A stretch of 23,951 nucleotides of DNA from contig CAWIYV010000003.1 of NCBI GenBank assembly GCA_963840455.1, positions 1 to 23,951 on the forward strand. Reading direction: 5' to 3'. The translations under genes and the position numbers were made by a program. Shown here in pieces: positions 1-6,881 of the stretch (positions are counted from its first letter, which is position 1; every line of letters begins with the position of its first letter). The notes under the pieces are model-generated. The model was not told the DNA's origin. It did not search any database and was given only the letters and a program-made list of their open reading frames with translations. This stretch comes from Nitrospirota bacterium. GTDB lineage: Bacteria > Nitrospirota > UBA9217.

Positions 1-1307
1 CAGTTTCGCAATCGCTTCGTCATTGAACGCATCCAGTTGAATCGATCTCTCAAATGCCTCTCTCGCTTTCTTCGAATCTCCCGTCACGATCCGATGGTAG
101 AATCCCAGTTTCTCATACCCCTCCGAGGACTCCGGATTCTCCCTGATAAGTTTCTCCACCGTTACCCTCGCCTCTTCCCCTTTGTCCAACAGGATGTAGA
201 TCTCCACTTTGAAGGCCAGAAGGAATGGGTCATTTGGAATCGCTCCCAACCCCCTGTCGCATTCTTTCAGCCCCTCAGCGAAGTCGCCGTGAAAGGTATA
301 GAGATAGGACGTGAAGATGCAGGGTACCGGATCTTGAAGAAATGAGTTTTTCGCCTCCTTCAGTATCTCCCCTGCCTCCTCCGGATGATTCCCTGTGATC
401 AACAGGTACGCCTTCCCCAACAGGGCCAAGAGTTCTTTCTTCTCCCTCAGGGCTTTGTCAAGGGAGATCTCTGCCTTCTCCTGTTCCCCCTTCTTCAGCG
501 CGATCAGGCCCAGCCCTGTCAGCGCTCGCGTATTGCCCGGGTCCCTCGACAGGGTCTCCTCAAATACCTTCCCACTCTCATCCAGCTTCCCTTCGTTCAG
601 CAGCGCCTCTCCTCGCCCAAGGCTCCCCTCCCTGAAGGTCAGATACCTCAACAGCCTCTTCTCCGTCAGGTAGTACGTCCACTGCGTCCGCTCTTTCGGC
701 ATCACGATGATGCTCTTCGTCGGCGCCTGGCTCCCGATCACCACCCCCTCTTCGTTCCTCCCTACCGAGATCGATCCGAAGGCATTCGAGAGTTGAACAT
801 TCCCTTCCAGCACGGTCACCCTCGACTCATTCTCCTTGACCGAGAGCCCCCACTCTGTCCCACGGATCGCTGCCGTCGCATAGGGCGTCTCGATCACCAC
901 CCCATCCCGTACCCCTTTCGACCTTGTCCACACCTCCCCAGATTCCAGCCGGAGCAGGATCTTGAGCGGCCCCGCTTTCTCTTTCGACGTCGTCACTTTT
1001 TGATGACGAGCGTCGTGTTGCTCGCCAGCTTCAACTGTGTCTCATCCCGGAACAGCATCGATAGACGACCCCCCGCTGCCGTCTTCACCATGTCATCCGT
1101 CACCAGTTCCTGTCTCGACACCGCCGGCCGGAACACCTCCTCAGGAACCAGACGCACCACGGCCTTCCCTGCCACAAACACAATCTCCCCAACAGGGCTA
1201 AACCCCTTCCTCTCCAACCGTTTTTCTGCGGCTTCACAAAGGGAAACGACCAGGATGATCCCGAGGATCGCTCGAACGGATTGCTTCACCAGAAGGGTCG
1301 CTCTCAT
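1..1307 (-). pseudogene. FecR-domain + TPR-repeat exported protein, split by a 1-nt frameshift at 997-1001; runs off the window edge
   Basis: ATG at 1307 gives a signal peptide and FecR N-part (GEIVFVAGKAVV...DMVKTAAGGRLSMLFRDETQLKLASNTTLVIKK*). The -1 frame from 996 to base 1 is fully open and reads VTTSKEKAGPLKILLRLESGEVW...IETPYATAAIRGTEWGLSVKENESRVTVLEGNVQL (FecR motif), then TPR-like helices (RALTGLGLIALKKGEQEKA; EGYEKLGFYH). Confidence 0.8.
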
Positions 1308-1530
1308 GCCCCACACCCCTTCACCATGGCAATTCACTCTCGTCCCGGCCCGTAGACAGTGCAAGAATCTCCTCCTTCCTTGGAGGGGGGATAAGATGAC
1401 AGATGAGACACAGCGATTTTACCTAATCTATCCAAAATGTCAACTGATTATCAGCCAATGAGAAGCCGGAGGACAAGATTCAGGGTTTTTTGGATGAAAA
1501 GCCCGTCTAAGTTTTCTTGGCCAATACTCG

Positions 1531-1793
1531 GGGCTTACTTCATAGCGTAATGCCTCAGTGACTGGGTCACGCAGTCGTCCACGGAGGTCGACCTACTCCG
1601 TCCTCGCGTTTCAGAGGCGGAACTTCACAGGTGAGCCTAATGAGCCTCTGGACTTTGATGGACGATGGTTTGCCAAGGGTCGTGAGGAGGTCCTTCGCCA
1701 TAGGATCCGCCACTGAACCGCTGCGGGTGAGCAGGTCAACCTCCGTGGAATCAAGGTGTGCCGTGCGGTAACTGAGGGCTTACTCCATAGCGT
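1531..1793. mobile_element. 245-bp fold-back (rod-like) element bounded by 18-bp direct repeats; identity unknown (structured RNA or small mobile element)
   Basis: GGGCTTACTtCATAGCGT at 1531-1548 and GGGCTTACTcCATAGCGT at 1776-1793. Nested complementary segments span 1553-1777, e.g. 1578-1594 pairs with 1733-1749 at 16/17 positions. Confidence 0.6.
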
Positions 1794-1971
1794 CAATTCT
1801 TCTTGACTCCTTCCTTCCATTTTGGTAATGTGATAACCAATATCAAGTCTCTGAGCCAGTTTCCCGTAAATCAACCTACTAACATAACCTTTAACCTTTT
1901 GGAGAGAGTGATGAGGGAAAGATTCCAAAGAGTACCACCAGTCACCCCATTTTTTTAGAAAGGAAAAAGAC

Positions 1972-2037
1972 ATGAGTAAAGGAAAAAAGACAAAACATGG
2001 TAAAAAAATTAGGAAACAGGAAAAGAAAAAGAAGTAA
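1972..2037 (+). CDS. putative 21-aa lysine-rich small protein MSKGKKTKHGKKIRKQEKKKK
   Basis: AGAAAGGA Shine-Dalgarno-like motif upstream of ATG 1972; TAA at 2035-2037; 11 of 21 residues are Lys. Confidence 0.4.
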   Translation: MSKGKKTKHGKKIRKQEKKKK

Positions 2038-2086
2038 CGGTCACAGGGTACAGGTCTGTAAACCTTAACGTTGGAGAACAAACCAA
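2038..2086 (+). pseudogene. degenerate tRNA-Tyr(GTA)-like fragment
   Basis: CGGTCACAGGGTACAGGTCTGTAAACCT resembles the D-loop-to-anticodon segment of bacterial tRNA-Tyr (CGGTCAAAGGGAGCAGACTGTAAATCT). It is followed by a decayed TTGG...CCAA arm, and no acceptor stem is visible. Confidence 0.3.
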
Positions 2087-2262
2087 AACAGACGTGGCGG
2101 GGAGAGTGGAATAAGCCTTGTAGCGGGACCGTCTGAATGCAAAGCACCACGTTTTCCAGACGTTGCTGGACTTGATTTCTGGTGAGGTCTCGCATAATCC
2201 ATTCCATGTCAAAGAAACCCGCATTTACAAGGCTTTCGGAAGTGTTCCCGACGGGTCTGTTT
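2086..2262. repeat. ~177-nt imperfect long hairpin with terminal inverted repeats AAACAGAC/GTCTGTTT
   Basis: 2086-2093 pairs with 2255-2262; AAGCCTTGTA 2113-2122 with TACAAGGCTT 2226-2235; GCGGG 2123-2127 with CCCGC 2218-2222. Inner helices CACCA/TGGTG and TCCAG/CTGGA. Confidence 0.5.
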
Positions 2263-2277
2263 ATGCAACTATGAGTA

Positions 2278-2314
2278 AAATCTGTTTACGTTGGTTCGAC
2301 CCCAACACGGTTCT
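2278..2314 (+). pseudogene. 3' half of a tRNA (tRNA-Cys-like)
   Basis: AAA-TCTGT (anticodon 3' strand)-TTAC (4-nt variable loop)-GTTGG TTCGACC CCAAC (perfect T arm)-ACGGTTC-T (acceptor strand, U discriminator typical of tRNA-Cys). No CCA and no contiguous 5' half. Confidence 0.6.
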
Positions 2315-2321
2315 TTAAAAA

Positions 2322-2358
2322 CCCTCTATCGTCTGGCGGTGAGGACACCTCTATTTCC
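2322..2358 (+). pseudogene. 5' half of a tRNA-Glu(TTC)-like gene
   Basis: CCCTCTA-TC-GTCT-GGCGGTGA-GGAC-A-CCTCT-ATTTCC matches the tRNA-Glu layout (TCGTCTAGCGGTTAGGACACC) up to a TTC anticodon loop, then breaks off. Confidence 0.55.
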
Positions 2359-2583
2359 TTCCCGGCAACAAAAACAGTTGAGCATATCACTATGAGCTGT
2401 TTACCGTGGACTGTGGGCTTTTGTAACGGTAGTTCAAAGTATTAATTTTCAACAATGTCCCCAAAAGTCGATTCAAGGTTTATCCCGTGAATGCCGATCA
2501 AACCTGAGAGATTGCCAAAACCGTCTTCCGACTTTACCTCCTAATCGAAGGGTGCGTCCATAACATTGGAAAAGGAATTTTAT

Positions 2584-3204
2584 ATGTTAAAAAAGATGCT
2601 CATTTTCATATTTGCAGTGATCTTTATCCTCCCGATAAGCACGGTTGCCCTTGAGAGAGACGAACAGATAAAAGGTTTTGAAAAGAAGATAAGAGGGATG
2701 CTTAATAAAACCAGAAGTAGTCTTCCCATCATCGACGTGGAGTACCACCATGGTGGGAAGATAGAGATGCAGAGACTCTTGTCCAAAATGGATCAAAACG
2801 CCGTGGCATTAACGTGGCTGGGACCCAATGAAAACCTCGGAAGCGAAGAATCCATAAGGCTGGGTGAATCATACCCTGACCGATTCGTTCCAACAACCGT
2901 TCACGGTGATGGTGAACGATGGCACAGTAGCGACAAGGGTTTTCTTGAAAAGCTGGCAAAGGACGCGCGGTCAGGGAAATATTTTGCCATGGGGGAGTTT
3001 GAGGCGAGGCATTATGCTTCGGACACAAATAATTATGTCTCGTCGGGGGGAGCTTCCCTTGAGACCGATTGGAAAAAGGTGATTGAGGAGTTCCGGACAG
3101 GTTTGTTTTTTTGTAGCCCTCTCTCCCGGCGGATCGTTTTCCGTCAGGCGCGTCAGTCCGCAGATAATATGAAATCCGTCGCTCTCCAATTACCTAATAA
3201 ATGA
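2584..3204 (+). pseudogene. exported amidohydrolase-superfamily (TIM-barrel) protein, internally deleted and frameshifted
   Basis: Signal peptide, then LPIIDVEYHH...MDQNAV...YPDRFVP...AMGEFEARH. The sequence jumps to LETDWKKVIEEF, where restoring one C at ~3093 gives the family-typical FPDRFVF. Too short for a full barrel. Confidence 0.6.
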
Positions 3205-3445
3205 ACAATACCTTATTGTCCCGATAAAATCAAGTAAACACGGTGCAATAATATAATCTGAAAGATGCATTTATCGAAAAGGGAACGCAACCATAGATAA
3301 TAAGAGAAGAGAGAGATCTGCTCGTATCGATGCGCAGTCCTACAATTTACCTTTCACCAGCGAATCCAACGCCGACGGATCAAGGGGACGACCAGAAGCC
3401 GGCCGATGGGTAATGTGATGCCCCCTACCATGCCGCCGATTCGTA

Positions 3446-3474
3446 TTTACAAGTGAATACTGAGGTGTTATAGT
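3446..3474 (+). promoter_or_regulatory. sigma70-type promoter, probably giving a leaderless mRNA
   Basis: TTTACA (3446-3451), 17-bp spacer, TGt-TATAGT extended -10 (3469-3474). ATG 3482 lies 7 nt downstream of the -10. Confidence 0.65.
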
Positions 3475-3481
3475 ATCCCTC

Positions 3482-3901
3482 ATGAAGCATGGAATGATGC
3501 ATAAGATCATGTCCGGGGCTCTGCTCTTTTATTTCGCCCTTTTCGTCATTCCGCCGGTATCCTCTTTTACCCCAACATCGGGAATGTTCGCGACTGCTGA
3601 TGACGGGTCCTCCCTTGAGCAGGATCATCGCCAGACCAGACTCTATCTCGTTGACATCTTCATCTGGCTCAAGCTGAAGGAGTCCCGGCATTCCGTTGCG
3701 ACGGCGATAGCACCGGTTGACCAGGCCGCTGCGGAAAGACCGGCCGTATCTTTTGACTCGCTCACAGCGCTTCTGCCCGACCAGACAGAGCATATGGTCC
3801 GGGTCACCAGGATCCTCCGGCACGCCATTTCCGGGCACCTTTCCCGGACCTCTGATATCTACTTTGCCCGCTCGGGCATCGCTCCACCCTTCCTCGCGTA
3901 G
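3482..3901 (+). CDS. hypothetical protein with N-terminal TM/signal segment and C-terminal SGIAPP motif (candidate arrest peptide/uORF)
   Basis: 139-aa ORF; hydrophobic GALLFYFALFVIPPV; ends FARSGIAPPFLA*; promoter directly upstream. Confidence 0.65.
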   Translation: MKHGMMHKIMSGALLFYFALFVIPPVSSFTPTSGMFATADDGSSLEQDHRQTRLYLVDIFIWLKLKESRHSVATAIAPVDQAAAERPAVSFDSLTALLPDQTEHMVRVTRILRHAISGHLSRTSDIYFARSGIAPPFLA

Positions 3902-4118
3902 CACCCCGCTGTAATCCACGGAAAACAACTGTTTAGACCGTCAGAGCCGACCCGGCTGTCGAATCGTGCTGTCCGCTGCTTGCTTTTCGCACGGGTTAAC
4001 ATGTTCGTTCACGCGCCTACGCGCGGTGACGGATCGTTTCCCGCCGGTCGGAGGCGTGTTATGCAGCGCGCGTTCACGGCTGGACGCGAAGCTCTCTGTG
4101 AGTCTATTAGGAGAATCT

Positions 4119-4613
4119 ATGAAAGCAAAAGAACTGATGCATCCGGTTAACGATTACCTTAGACCGGAATTGACGCTCAAAGAAGCGGTGTCCCTCCTCA
4201 AGAAATGCAGAACCGGAGAGGAGAACATCTGCGTGCGGGCGCTTCCCGTTTTGGACGAGCAGATGAAGTTCGTGGGCCTGTTATCCATGGGAGACATCCT
4301 GAAGGCAATCTGGCCGAAATACATGTCGCTCATGAGCCTCGGCAACTTCGCATGGGACGGAATGGTAGAGGAACTCGCGAGGCGGTCGAAAGACCTGCGC
4401 GTAGAGGACCTCATGACCCGCGAGGTCGTCACGGTGCGCCCGGATTCGCCGCTCATGGAATGCGTGGACCACATGCTAAAGTTCGGCGTGAAGAAGCTAC
4501 CGGTAGTTGATCCAGACGGTGCAGTAGCCGGCATGCTCTACGAGCGGGATCTGTTCTTCGCCATCGTCGGGGCGATCCTGAACGACAGCGGCAAGCCGGA
4601 GGGCAAGCCATGA
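4119..4613 (+). CDS. CBS-pair domain protein
   Basis: AGGAGA RBS before ATG 4119; two CBS motifs (ALPVLDEQMKFVGLLSMGDI; KLPVVDPDGAVAGMLYERDL). Confidence 0.9.
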   Translation: MKAKELMHPVNDYLRPELTLKEAVSLLKKCRTGEENICVRALPVLDEQMKFVGLLSMGDILKAIWPKYMSLMSLGNFAWDGMVEELARRSKDLRVEDLMTREVVTVRPDSPLMECVDHMLKFGVKKLPVVDPDGAVAGMLYERDLFFAIVGAILNDSGKPEGKP

Positions 4614-5977
4614 CGCTGGAATCATCAACACCGGGGATTGCGTTCATCATGGATCTTCCATTCTGGATCGCTACGGTGGTGTTCTTAACCGCCTACGCGA
4701 TGATCATCACCGAAAAGTTGCATAAGACCGTGGTCGCCATATTCGCGGCTTCCCTCATGCTCGTCCTCCGGATCGTGGAGCAGCATGAGGCGTTCCACGT
4801 GGAGGAGCTCGGCGTGGACTGGAACGTGATCATCCTGCTGATCTCCATGATGCTCATCATTAACCTGATGCGGCCGACGGGCGTCTTCGAATATATCGCC
4901 ATCCGGTCCGCCAAGTGGGGCAAGGGGGACCCCTTTCGGATCATGGTGATCTTCGCCCTCGTCACCGCTGTCCTGAGCGCGCTGCTCGACAATGTAACCA
5001 CGGTCCTTCTGATCACCCCCGCGGCCATCCTGATCGCCGACGCCCTTGAGGTCGACGCCGTACCCTACCTCATCTCGTCGGCCCTCGCCTCGAACATCGG
5101 CGGTACGGCGACGCTCATCGGCGACCCGCCGAACCTGATGATCGCGTCGCGTGCCCAGCTGACCTTCATGGACTTCATTGTCAATCTCGCTCCGCTGGTC
5201 ATCATCCTGTTGGTCCTGTACCTTGTTGCCATGAAACTCATCTGGGGACGCAAACTGGTGACCCGCGACGAATTAAAGGAGCGCATCATGCAGATGGATG
5301 AGCGCGAGGCCATCAAGGACCCGGTCATGCTCCGAAAGTCCCTCGCCGTGCTCGTGCTGGTCCTCGCCGGATTCGTCTTCCACGGCATCCTGCATTTCCA
5401 GCCAGCGACTATCGCTCTATTCGGTGCGGGCCTGCTGCTGCTTCTTTCGCGCACAAACGAGCCCCACCACGTACTTTCAGAGGTCGAGTGGCCAACCATC
5501 TTTTTCTTCCTCGGCCTGTTCATCATCGTTGGAGGTGTCGTGAAGGTGGGGCTCATCAAGCGTATGTCCCTCCAGATTCTTGAACTAACGGGTGGCGACC
5601 TGTTTGCAACCTCGATGATCGTCATGTGGTTCTCCGCCATCGCCTCCGCCGTGGTAGACAACATCCCCTATGTCGCCACGATGAACCCTCTGATCGTTGA
5701 TATGGCGCGGCAGCTCTGGCCGGACCTGTCCGGCATCCAGCTTCTGCAGCACCCTGACCTCATGCCTCTCTGGTGGTCCCTGGCGCTGGGCGCCTGTCTG
5801 GGCGGGAACGCAACGATCGTCGGTGCGTCTGCAAACGTGATCGTCGTCGGCCTCTCGGAAAAGGCGGGGAGGAAGATCTCCTTCTGGAAGTTCATGGCCT
5901 ATGGCACTCCGGTTATGATCATGACGGTGGCGGTCTCGTCCCTCTATGTATGGATACGATACTACCTGCTGCGATGA
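4610..5977 (+). CDS. ArsB/NhaD (SLC13-like, IT superfamily) permease
   Basis: Multiple TM helices; motifs SALLDNVTTVLL, ASNIGGTATLIGDPPN, SAVVDNIPYVATM, LGGNATIVGASAN; ATGA overlap with the CBS gene. Confidence 0.9.
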   Translation: MTLESSTPGIAFIMDLPFWIATVVFLTAYAMIITEKLHKTVVAIFAASLMLVLRIVEQHEAFHVEELGVDWNVIILLISMMLIINLMRPTGVFEYIAIRSAKWGKGDPFRIMVIFALVTAVLSALLDNVTTVLLITPAAILIADALEVDAVPYLISSALASNIGGTATLIGDPPNLMIASRAQLTFMDFIVNLAPLVIILLVLYLVAMKLIWGRKLVTRDELKERIMQMDEREAIKDPVMLRKSLAVLVLVLAGFVFHGILHFQPATIALFGAGLLLLLSRTNEPHHVLSEVEWPTIFFFLGLFIIVGGVVKVGLIKRMSLQILELTGGDLFATSMIVMWFSAIASAVVDNIPYVATMNPLIVDMARQLWPDLSGIQLLQHPDLMPLWWSLALGACLGGNATIVGASANVIVVGLSEKAGRKISFWKFMAYGTPVMIMTVAVSSLYVWIRYYLLR

Positions 5978-6032
5978 GTGATGATCCAATCATCGTTGCA
6001 CTCAGTTCAATGACCTAAAGGAGATACTTTCC

Positions 6033-6881
6033 ATGAAAAGAACTATGATACTGATAGCTGCAGCGCTCGGTGCTCTCGTACTGTATGTAGACCTCAGCGG
6101 CGGTAAATTCCGCGATCGTATCGAGCGTGAGCGAGCATCGATCCTCAAGGCCTGCACAGCCGCTCCTGCCATTTCCGCTTCGCAAAAGGGTCTCGCTGAT
6201 CTTCCTGCGCCCGTGCGGAAATATCTTCAGTTTGCGCTGGGGGGGCGAAGCAAGTCGGTCTCATCCGTGCGGATCAAGCAGTCAGGTTCGTTCCGATTAA
6301 GTGAAAAGGATTCTTGGACGCCCGTCACTGCCAACCAGCTGCTGGCCCTTGGAAAACCGGCTTTTGTCTGGCATGCCCGGCTCCAGCCCCATCCCTATGT
6401 TTGGACGGAAAGCCGGGACATACTGCACGAGGGTGTTGCTAAAACGGAGCACCGGCTATACTCGGCCTTCCCATTCCCCCTCAAACGCTTTATCGGCAAG
6501 GCCGCTGATGTCTCCGCTCTCGTCAGATATCTGACCGAAGCGCCCTGGCTCCCGGCAGCTTTGCTCCCGAGCGACCATCTCTCATGGAAGGCCATTGATG
6601 ACCGTACCGCCAGAGCCACTCTGATCTACAATGGATATCGGGTCAGCGCTGATTTCACGTTCAACAGTGAAAGCGAGATCACTCAGGTGACTACACGGGA
6701 CCGCACCTGGAACCGATCGGGCGCCTCCGAGGCGCATCCCTGGATAGCCCGTTATCAGCGGTATGAGCTACACAGCGGGATCAAGGTTCCCATGGAGATG
6801 GAGACGGAGTGGAGTATCAACGGCAAAAGCTTCCCCTACGCCCGGCTGCAGGTCGACACGATTGCATTCGAAGGTATGTAG
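6033..6881 (+). CDS. conserved hypothetical protein, DUF6544/DUF6920-like, N-terminal membrane anchor
   Basis: AAGGAG RBS; motifs LPAPVRKYL, RYLTEAPWLPAALLP, WKAIDDRTARAT, GIKVP. Confidence 0.75.
   Translation: MKRTMILIAAALGALVLYVDLSGGKFRDRIERERASILKACTAAPAISASQKGLADLPAPVRKYLQFALGGRSKSVSSVRIKQSGSFRLSEKDSWTPVTANQLLALGKPAFVWHARLQPHPYVWTESRDILHEGVAKTEHRLYSAFPFPLKRFIGKAADVSALVRYLTEAPWLPAALLPSDHLSWKAIDDRTARATLIYNGYRVSADFTFNSESEITQVTTRDRTWNRSGASEAHPWIARYQRYELHSGIKVPMEMETEWSINGKSFPYARLQVDTIAFEGM

Follow-up and report, generated by a model that had tools for sequence, protein, structure and literature searches.

A rod-folding 245-bp unit in a Nitrospirota genome is probably a stranded, non-coding MITE with IS66-family ends

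The 245-bp rod-folding unit near the left end of the window (the entire 23,951-bp contig C3 of G000, a 4.03-Mb, 14-contig assembly with 58% G+C) is, with a probability that we put at roughly 0.9, a single, stranded copy of a non-coding MITE with IS66-family end sequences. The element is ordinary mobile DNA and not a viroid-like circle. Its assignment as a MITE follows from the combination of TIRs, a target-site duplication of fixed length but variable sequence, the lack of a coding frame and the existence of many dispersed copies. The original prediction, made from the letters of the window alone, had offered two readings, a DNA copy of a viroid-like RNA or a non-coding mini-element integrated as a circle by site-specific recombination; what the copies, TIRs and target-site duplications bear out is a non-coding mobile mini-element whose direct repeats mark its insertion.

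The element is present as a single copy in its own genome; 60 relatives, a sample of 400 genomes of the phylum and, by a search in distant mode, plasmid and phage collections gave no match. The original prediction had proposed a BLASTN search for other copies, and these were found outside G000. An exact-pattern scan with the conserved core of the element led to G061, a 2.8-Mb MAG labelled uncultured delta proteobacterium, in which BLAST identified seven full-length copies (80-97% identical), half of a further one and some short remnants; 80 relatives of G061, a set distinct from the sample of the window phylum, gave no match to the element. A second core pattern recovered 29 metagenome loci, many of them with the match at a contig end. 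In the alignment of the copies with their flanks similarity stops at the edges of the unit, the length of which is 235-237 bp. The several dispersed copies per genome that are expected of a MITE are seen in G061 (seven full copies and fragments) and not in G000 (one copy). Two end-only matches in G061, L039 and L041, proved to be short remnants beside ordinary genes rather than ends of a larger element, and L030, L046 and L047 were judged to have matched the search patterns by chance. A scan with the 18-mer direct repeat of the original prediction returned seven scattered single matches in unrelated taxa, which we attribute to chance, as by our own estimate tens would be expected.

The anatomy of the window copy, as read from these copies and from the transposase gene at locus L050 that is described below, is as follows.

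1526-1538, plus strand: right-end-like 13-bp stub ACTCGGGGCTTAC, outside the element and directly left of the left target-site duplication
1539-1546, no strand: left 8-bp target-site duplication TTCATAGC, identical to 1784-1791 at 7 of 8 bases
1547-1783, plus strand: MITE body of 237 bp, non-coding, one imperfect hairpin, delimited by end-to-end alignment with the G061 copies (80-97%) and with metagenome copies
1547-1564, plus strand: left TIR GTAATGCCTCAGTGACTG, 14 of 18 bases matching the reverse complement of the right end
1577-1621, plus strand: conserved left inner arm, mean pairwise identity 0.88-0.93, pairing with 1697-1741
1666-1669, plus strand: apical loop TGGT of the MFE hairpin, from the MFE fold
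1697-1741, plus strand: conserved right inner arm, mean pairwise identity 0.90-0.97
1766-1783, minus strand: right TIR, reverse complement GTAAGCCCTCAGTTACCG, 17 of 18 bases identical to the end beside the L050 IS66-family transposase gene
1784-1791, no strand: right 8-bp target-site duplication TCCATAGC, placed from the aligned copies

A repeat search gave a direct repeat with a start-to-start distance of 245 between 1526-1563 and 1771-1808 (74% over 38 nt), which is strongest in the 18-bp direct repeat from which the unit had been defined (1531-1548 and 1776-1793, one mismatch). The same search gave an outer inverted repeat at 1542-1562 and 1768-1788. The family consensus starts with GTAACCCCTCAGTTACCG and finishes with its reverse complement, and the 18-bp TIRs, which match at 14/18 in the window copy, form a perfect inverted repeat in copies L036 and L037. 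The ends begin with GTAACCCC in the consensus, and with GTAATGCC and GTAAGCCC in the window copy. No ORF is preserved among the copies, as these differ from one another by 1-nt indels, in keeping with the original remark that the unit contains no convincing ORF; at 237 bp the body is also well within the limit of about 500 bp that is customary for MITEs.

The 8 bp that had been described as the spacer of a recombination site are the target-site duplication. Duplications were counted at eight independent loci with both ends recognisable, drawn from 21 aligned rows. The rows dropped include several copies with aberrant ends, namely L032 (which represents one locus together with L056 and L064 and lacks the left end), L033 and L035 (with rearranged ends) and L084 (diverged ends); in L057 and L071 the right end is replaced by another repeat, L070 and L075 are the same locus as L031, and L080, L067 and L074 are cut by contig ends. 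The two 8-mers flanking a copy agree at 49 of 64 positions, versus 21 of 64 for the next outward 8-mers, which served as a control. At five of the eight loci the agreement is 7/8 or better (chance 3.8e-4 for each), while the remaining three have poor duplications (5/8, 4/8 and 3/8). The 8-mers differ between loci, being GATTTTCA and GGTTTTCA at L031, CGGAAGAA on both sides at L036, AAAATTTC on both sides at L037, and CGTCGTCC and GGTCGTCC at L081. A duplication of fixed length, here 8 bp, whose sequence varies by copy is the signature of staggered-cut DDE transposition, and since the 8-mers vary between copies and match within a copy they point to that process and not to site-specific recombination. 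The matching duplication in the window also joins both flanks of the element, which speaks against a chimeric contig put together at the repeat.

We consider it very improbable, in consequence, that a non-coding circle was integrated by a tyrosine (or serine) recombinase at a 13-8-13 site, with the repeats as attL and attR. Such an arrangement does exist at 1526-1559, and the succession of right end, 7-8 bp and left end recurs at L033 and L050; the 13-8-13 geometry is likewise that of tyrosine-recombinase sites of the loxP/FRT type. The original prediction had arrived at it by joining the two repeats, a step that is not needed, as the window already contains ACTCGGGGCTTAC, then TTCATAGC, then GTAATGCCTCAGT in linear order. 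However, a crossover core borne by the element would be constant, as opposed to the variable 8-mers TTCATAGC, GATTTTCA, CGGAAGAA, AAAATTTC and CGTCGTCC, and unlike the spacer of loxP/FRT sites that of the element varies by copy and is duplicated on both sides. Moreover, six of the eight counted copies have no end-like 13-mer outside the duplication, the ends match those of an IS66-family DDE element, and no Pfam family was found for the ORFs adjoining the element in the window. Neither was a recombinase gene found among the neighbouring window ORFs, which have TPR/FecR, CBS or CitMHS domains or nothing.

The stub at 1526-1538 lies outside the element, is identical to the element's own right end at 11 of 13 bases and to the consensus right end of the family at 10 of 13 (chance of at least 10/13 at a fixed place, 1.3e-4), and together with the 8-mer that follows it makes up the left half of the direct repeat (18-23 bp) noted originally. 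At L033 a right end is followed by 7-8 bp and a 12-nt left-end stub while the first 11 nt of the copy itself are missing, and this copy looks circularly permuted; at L050 a 14-nt right-end-like sequence stands 8 bp before the exact IS66-family end. The element may have inserted into the duplication next to an end or pseudo-end that was already there, or the stub may be what is left of a circle junction or tandem dimer, by analogy with copy-out-paste-in IS elements. A combined proposal, that the abutted ends are relics of circles or dimers and that the inner hairpin is in addition a functional single-stranded RNA or DNA module, is one that we regard as rather unlikely. If it is true, then copy-out-paste-in would be the mode of movement of this IS66 branch, and the spacer would have the length of the target duplication. 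The literature that we searched yielded no description of the transposition pathway of this branch, and IS66 is absent from the circle-forming IS families in the list given by one preprint (10.1101/2023.06.07.543989). Abutted ends at target-duplication spacing, in an IS family with a poorly known pathway, could be of modest interest for the study of transposition.

Ends that start with GTAA, in combination with an 8-bp duplication, point to the IS66 family. A scan of species-representative genomes identified the exact 18-bp end at 11 loci, one of which, L050, is a contig of 1866 bp from a Deltaproteobacteria MAG. Here the end occupies positions 38-55, and 15 bp separate it from the stop codon of an ORF of 450 aa (70-1422, minus strand) that is an IS66-family transposase gene, as judged by its matches to PF03050 (E 6.3e-40, besides a weak match to zf-IS66) and to NCBIfam NF033517 (239 bits vs a cut-off of 180). 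The original prediction had listed similarity to an IS end among the outcomes that would refute it, and this exact 18-bp terminus beside an IS66-family transposase gene is such an outcome. A 141-aa ORF upstream of tnpC on the same contig had no family match in Pfam or NCBIfam. At a second locus, L101, a 14/18 variant of the end lies approximately 200 bp from another PF03050 fragment. The MITE and the L050 IS have ends of 18-19 bp alone in common and their interiors are unrelated. L050 represents an autonomous element with the same ends, of which the contig shows a single IS end; a complete IS66 parent with both ends was not recovered, and a scan for relatives of the L050 transposase returned L050 itself only. 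Neither G000 nor G061, with its several copies, gave a PF03050 match, so that the helper is unseen in both hosts, although IS copies are often lost from MAGs.

With 18-bp TIRs of IS66 type (GTAA...) flanking a gene-free body, the element would be expected to move only when an IS66-family DDE transposase is provided in trans. The transposase would bind both ends and insert the element at staggered cuts 8 bp apart, and repair of the cuts would give rise to the 8-bp target duplication, in this case TTCATAGC and TCCATAGC. The rod-like fold is an outcome of the design of the element, its two halves being imperfect inverted copies of each other, as is common in MITEs.

The window copy is 97% identical to two of the G061 copies, while the best FabF matches of G061 are 45-54% identical to the window FabF, compared with 56-57% for other families of the window phylum. 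Copies that are 97% identical in such distant hosts fit the horizontal spread of a mobile element. The window acetyl-CoA synthetase, for its part, is 95% identical to that of G001, which belongs to the same genus. We infer that the window copy was in all likelihood acquired horizontally along with a helper, that this helper was later lost and that the copy is now immobile; it is probably stranded, since no IS66 transposase was found in the 100%-complete, 14-contig assembly.

Metagenomes of freshwater sediment and wetland are rich in the family, which breaks assemblies there, with many copies at contig ends. In 20 public runs from 19 studies (freshwater sediment, wetland and soil) about one-fifth of the sampled words of 1301-2100 were present. 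In four of these runs the stretch of approximately 1553-1780 was found on 120, 89, 5 and 24 contigs at 85-99% likeness and with unlike flanks, and the summed depth reached approximately 400 over the element vs 2-6 on the flanks. A related population carries the element at the same site as the window, as seen from a soil contig of 1050 nt that runs collinearly with 1553-2062 (34 differences) and from short contigs that span the two junctions. None of the contigs of the four runs skips the element, although contigs cannot show absence.

In the window the element sits in a gap of approximately 1.2 kb without a convincing gene. Its left neighbour, a minus-strand FecR/TPR-like gene, is divided between ORFs 993-1364 and 1-996, and the element is approximately 100 bp upstream of the promoter-like site of this gene, with no evident effect. 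To its right is an AT-rich stretch (38-50% G+C). ORFs 1611-2207 (minus strand, overlapping the element) and 2566-3204 (plus strand) matched no Pfam or NCBIfam family, and blocks 1868-1948 and 1951-2062 had no match in G000, G061, the 60 relatives or the fetched loci. Positions 1-3110 of the window have no DNA-level sharing with five same-genus genomes, and DNA synteny with one genome, G003, runs from 3110 onward; by this synteny and by its acetyl-CoA synthetase, the right part of the contig is assigned to the genus of G000. No tRNA or tmRNA was found in the window. As a separate observation, 10 of 13 independent loci of the element lie between divergently oriented genes, based on rough ORF calls and with the window counted as divergent by ORF annotation; this share has a binomial p of 1.3e-4 at an expected 0.25 and of 0.008 at 0.4.

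The single unbranched imperfect hairpin that had been paired by hand, with a proposal to fold it against shuffled controls, withstood that comparison on both strands. As RNA, the plus strand of 1531-1793 folds at -116.7 kcal/mol vs -95.6 +/- 5.1 for shuffled sequences (z -4.1) and the minus strand at -109.5 kcal/mol (z -5.5), with 0 of 200 shuffles as good in either case; the MFE of the MITE body (1547-1783) is -112.8 kcal/mol. The repeat search gave long inner arms of 44 nt at 1578-1621 and 1706-1749 that are 77% complementary. An apical loop is present as predicted, but it was placed as GATG at 1664-1667, two bases away from the loop of the MFE fold at 1666-1669.

It is exceedingly improbable that this hairpin was copied into DNA from a circular rod RNA of viroid size. 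The rod-like fold and the presence of the element in RNA-library contigs are compatible with such an origin; however, there are many chromosomal DNA copies, in several genomes, with TIRs and target-site duplications. Nor does the expected closure into a rod-shaped circle bring a gain in energy, the circular fold of the 245-nt unit being no better than the linear one (-108.7 vs -113.1). The contigs of the four runs, which can miss rare forms, contain no back-joining joint. There is no ribozyme or other Rfam family, with no match at gathering score over the window, which upholds the original statement that a canonical ribozyme core is lacking, and a search of 1300-3600 at E up to 10 gave no family, only a spurious lncRNA match at E 9.2. 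A retron or omega-RNA was also considered and dropped, as the ends and duplications account for the structure and no reverse transcriptase or nuclease gene lies beside any copy.

We give equally little credence to a chance local inverted duplication or a host repeat of the REP/BIME type. The element does occur once in its own genome, and the original prediction had remarked, by eye, on a REP-like palindrome in one arm. Yet chance does not account for the near-identical copies in metagenomes and other genomes, which have defined ends and carry duplications, and REP elements are present in many copies per genome, as opposed to the one in G000.

Within the MITE, the two inner arms are better conserved than the rest. 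Among the window copy and the seven BLAST-found G061 copies, mean pairwise identity falls from 0.88-0.97 in the arms to 0.76-0.84 at the apex and 0.60-0.74 at the ends, and between the window copy and L036 differences occur at 8 of 90 arm positions vs 36 of 148 elsewhere (Fisher p 0.003). Within the interior it is the apex that varies most, some metagenome variants being without it (joints 1615>1702 and 1620>1702), and the deepest metagenome cover is on the left and right inner arms. The two strands also differ. The original count of about ten G-T vs about three A-C positions on the plus strand was right as to the excess but too large, since a strand-neutral palindromic self-alignment of the window copy yields 7 G·T vs 3 A·C; the MFE structure of this copy has 9 G-U pairs on the plus strand vs 3 on the minus strand. 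Over 14 copies the plus-strand totals are 131 G·T vs 65 A·C cells, with G·T larger in 13 copies and one tie, and the plus strand folds better than the minus strand in 13 of the 14. In the RNAalifold analysis the A·C breaks are all singletons and G-U variants are common to several copies, while 1 of 48 predicted pairs has changed on both sides and is still paired (U-A to C-G, in 3 sequences), and the covariation term amounts to -1.03 of -49.7 kcal/mol.

Conserved arms, strand asymmetry and sites between divergent genes do not follow from a purely selfish MITE. One might propose, as a supplement to the MITE reading and not as its replacement, that the arms at 1577-1621 and 1697-1741 form a selected RNA, ssDNA or protein-binding hairpin, a proposal that we consider unlikely. 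The better conservation of the arms, the stronger folding of the plus strand, its excess of G·T over A·C, the contrast between singleton A·C breaks and G-U variants common to several copies, the one doubly changed pair and the occurrence of the element on 24 contigs of a metatranscriptome run are all consistent with it. Against this, the covarying pair is one event in one subfamily and the covariation term is small; the copies are related, so that shared G·T positions are partly inherited; and the metagenome copies were gathered with exact patterns from the same arms, by which the apparent conservation is inflated. Contigs from an RNA library neither prove transcription nor give the strand, a hand count of orientation towards the nearer gene gave no bias (7 vs 4), and there is no Rfam match. 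Conserved subterminal arms could also be binding sites for the transposase or an accessory protein, which would explain their conservation equally well. Inner arms that are conserved above the transposase-binding ends could be of modest interest for transposition research.

The MITE assignment has its main value in annotation, as it accounts for a rod-shaped, repeat-bounded structure without viroid-like agents, and the window copy marks a recent horizontal event through its 97% identity to copies in a distantly related sediment bacterium. In the published papers searched, no description of this element or of any IS66-derived MITE was found.

The element may be compared with three further known systems. 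The succession of right end, spacer of duplication length and left end, which we have seen three times, is like the IR-IR junctions of copy-out-paste-in IS elements (IS30, IS3, IS256 and others) as these are outlined in PMC9333248 and 10.1101/2023.06.07.543989; unlike those junctions, it consists here of 12-14 bp stubs of a second end in chromosomal DNA, and no circle or dimer was observed. The likeness to IS66-family IS elements lies in the GTAA-starting ends, the 8-bp duplication and the identical 18-bp end beside an NF033517/PF03050 gene. Terminal repeats of 20-30 bp starting with GTAAGCG and characteristic 8-bp direct repeats are the IS66 features given in PMC11946415, and the element has 8-bp direct target repeats and ends that match as GTAA(G)C and not as the full GTAAGCG. 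In contrast to those IS elements it is without transposase or accessory genes and is 237 bp long, vs about 2.7-2.8 kb for the two IS66 members with 8-bp repeats in Table 2 of PMC3281130.

Bacterial MITEs such as MITEPsy1 and MITEAba12, in the accounts of PMC3189936 and PMC6382973, are likewise small and non-coding, with TIRs in common with an autonomous IS, which for MITEPsy1 is an IS5-family element (PMC3189936). Target-site duplications, several copies, intergenic sites and a hairpin fold are further points of agreement (PMC3189936). Unlike MITEPsy1 and MITEAba12, the window element is in a host genome with one copy and no helper, and its inner arms are conserved above its ends; it also differs from both in having IS66-type ends with an 8-bp duplication and in that its entire body is one long foldback.

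The sequence on either side of the MITE, the 237-bp IS66-type non-coding element at 1547-1783, has features of its own. To its left, a FecR/TPR-like gene (1-1364, minus strand) is broken into two ORFs, 993-1364 and 1-996, between which the FecR domain is shared out; the split gene may represent a frameshift or a pseudogene. To its right, the interval 1800-3400 is AT-rich, with a G+C content of 38-50% vs. 58% for the genome, and its ORFs had no family match. In addition, no counterpart of 1-3110 was identified among five same-genus genomes. Together, the AT-rich composition, the lack of family matches for 1800-3400 and the lack of a same-genus counterpart for 1-3110 suggest that this region is variable or acquired.

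Synteny with one of these congeners, G003, sets in abruptly at 3110, with 82% identity across 3110-6196. A segment just inside this boundary (3145-3292, within 3110-3430) also matches a second genome of the genus, G004, at 70%, where the counterpart adjoins an acetyl-CoA synthetase gene instead. This could be a block of conserved non-coding sequence traveling with differing neighbors.

Closer to the MITE, a short block at 1868-1948 (together with 1951-2062) was found on numerous metagenome contigs with dissimilar flanks, and its summed depth in sequencing run X1 reached up to 214. The block occurs once in the Nitrospirota genome, and was found neither in G061, an unrelated MAG with at least seven full MITE copies, nor among the 60 relatives searched; an Rfam search of it returned no match. 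It might be a further small repeat, or else a leader that has been conserved.

Variant copies of the MITE were observed elsewhere. On two metagenome contigs there are shorter variants without the apex, in which position 1615 or 1620 (window coordinates) is joined straight to 1702. L032, L056, and L064, which represent one locus in related strains, carry copies without the left terminal 11 nt, and in L032 the right end is likewise deleted. The host flanks of L032, CAACATAGAAGTT and AACTTCTATGTTG, are themselves inverted repeats and lengthen the hairpin.

At the right ends of several MITE copies there is a second repeat family, consisting of a GC-rich hairpin (...GCACAGCGCGGGGCTTCCCG...) followed by ...ATATTGTGCCCC. 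This family replaces, or nests in, the right end at L057, L071, and L070/L075, and also adjoins a MITE remnant in G061 (L041, 1390-1440).

The MITE's 18-bp terminal sequence was also found with a different interior behind it at three loci (L054, 122-1793; L049, 2641-2692; and L051, 2792-2826). In L054, from a Verrucomicrobiota MAG, an exact 18-bp end and an 89% copy of that end bracket ~1.7 kb containing a DAHP synthase ORF; possibly, this segment is a relative of the composite or cargo-carrying type.
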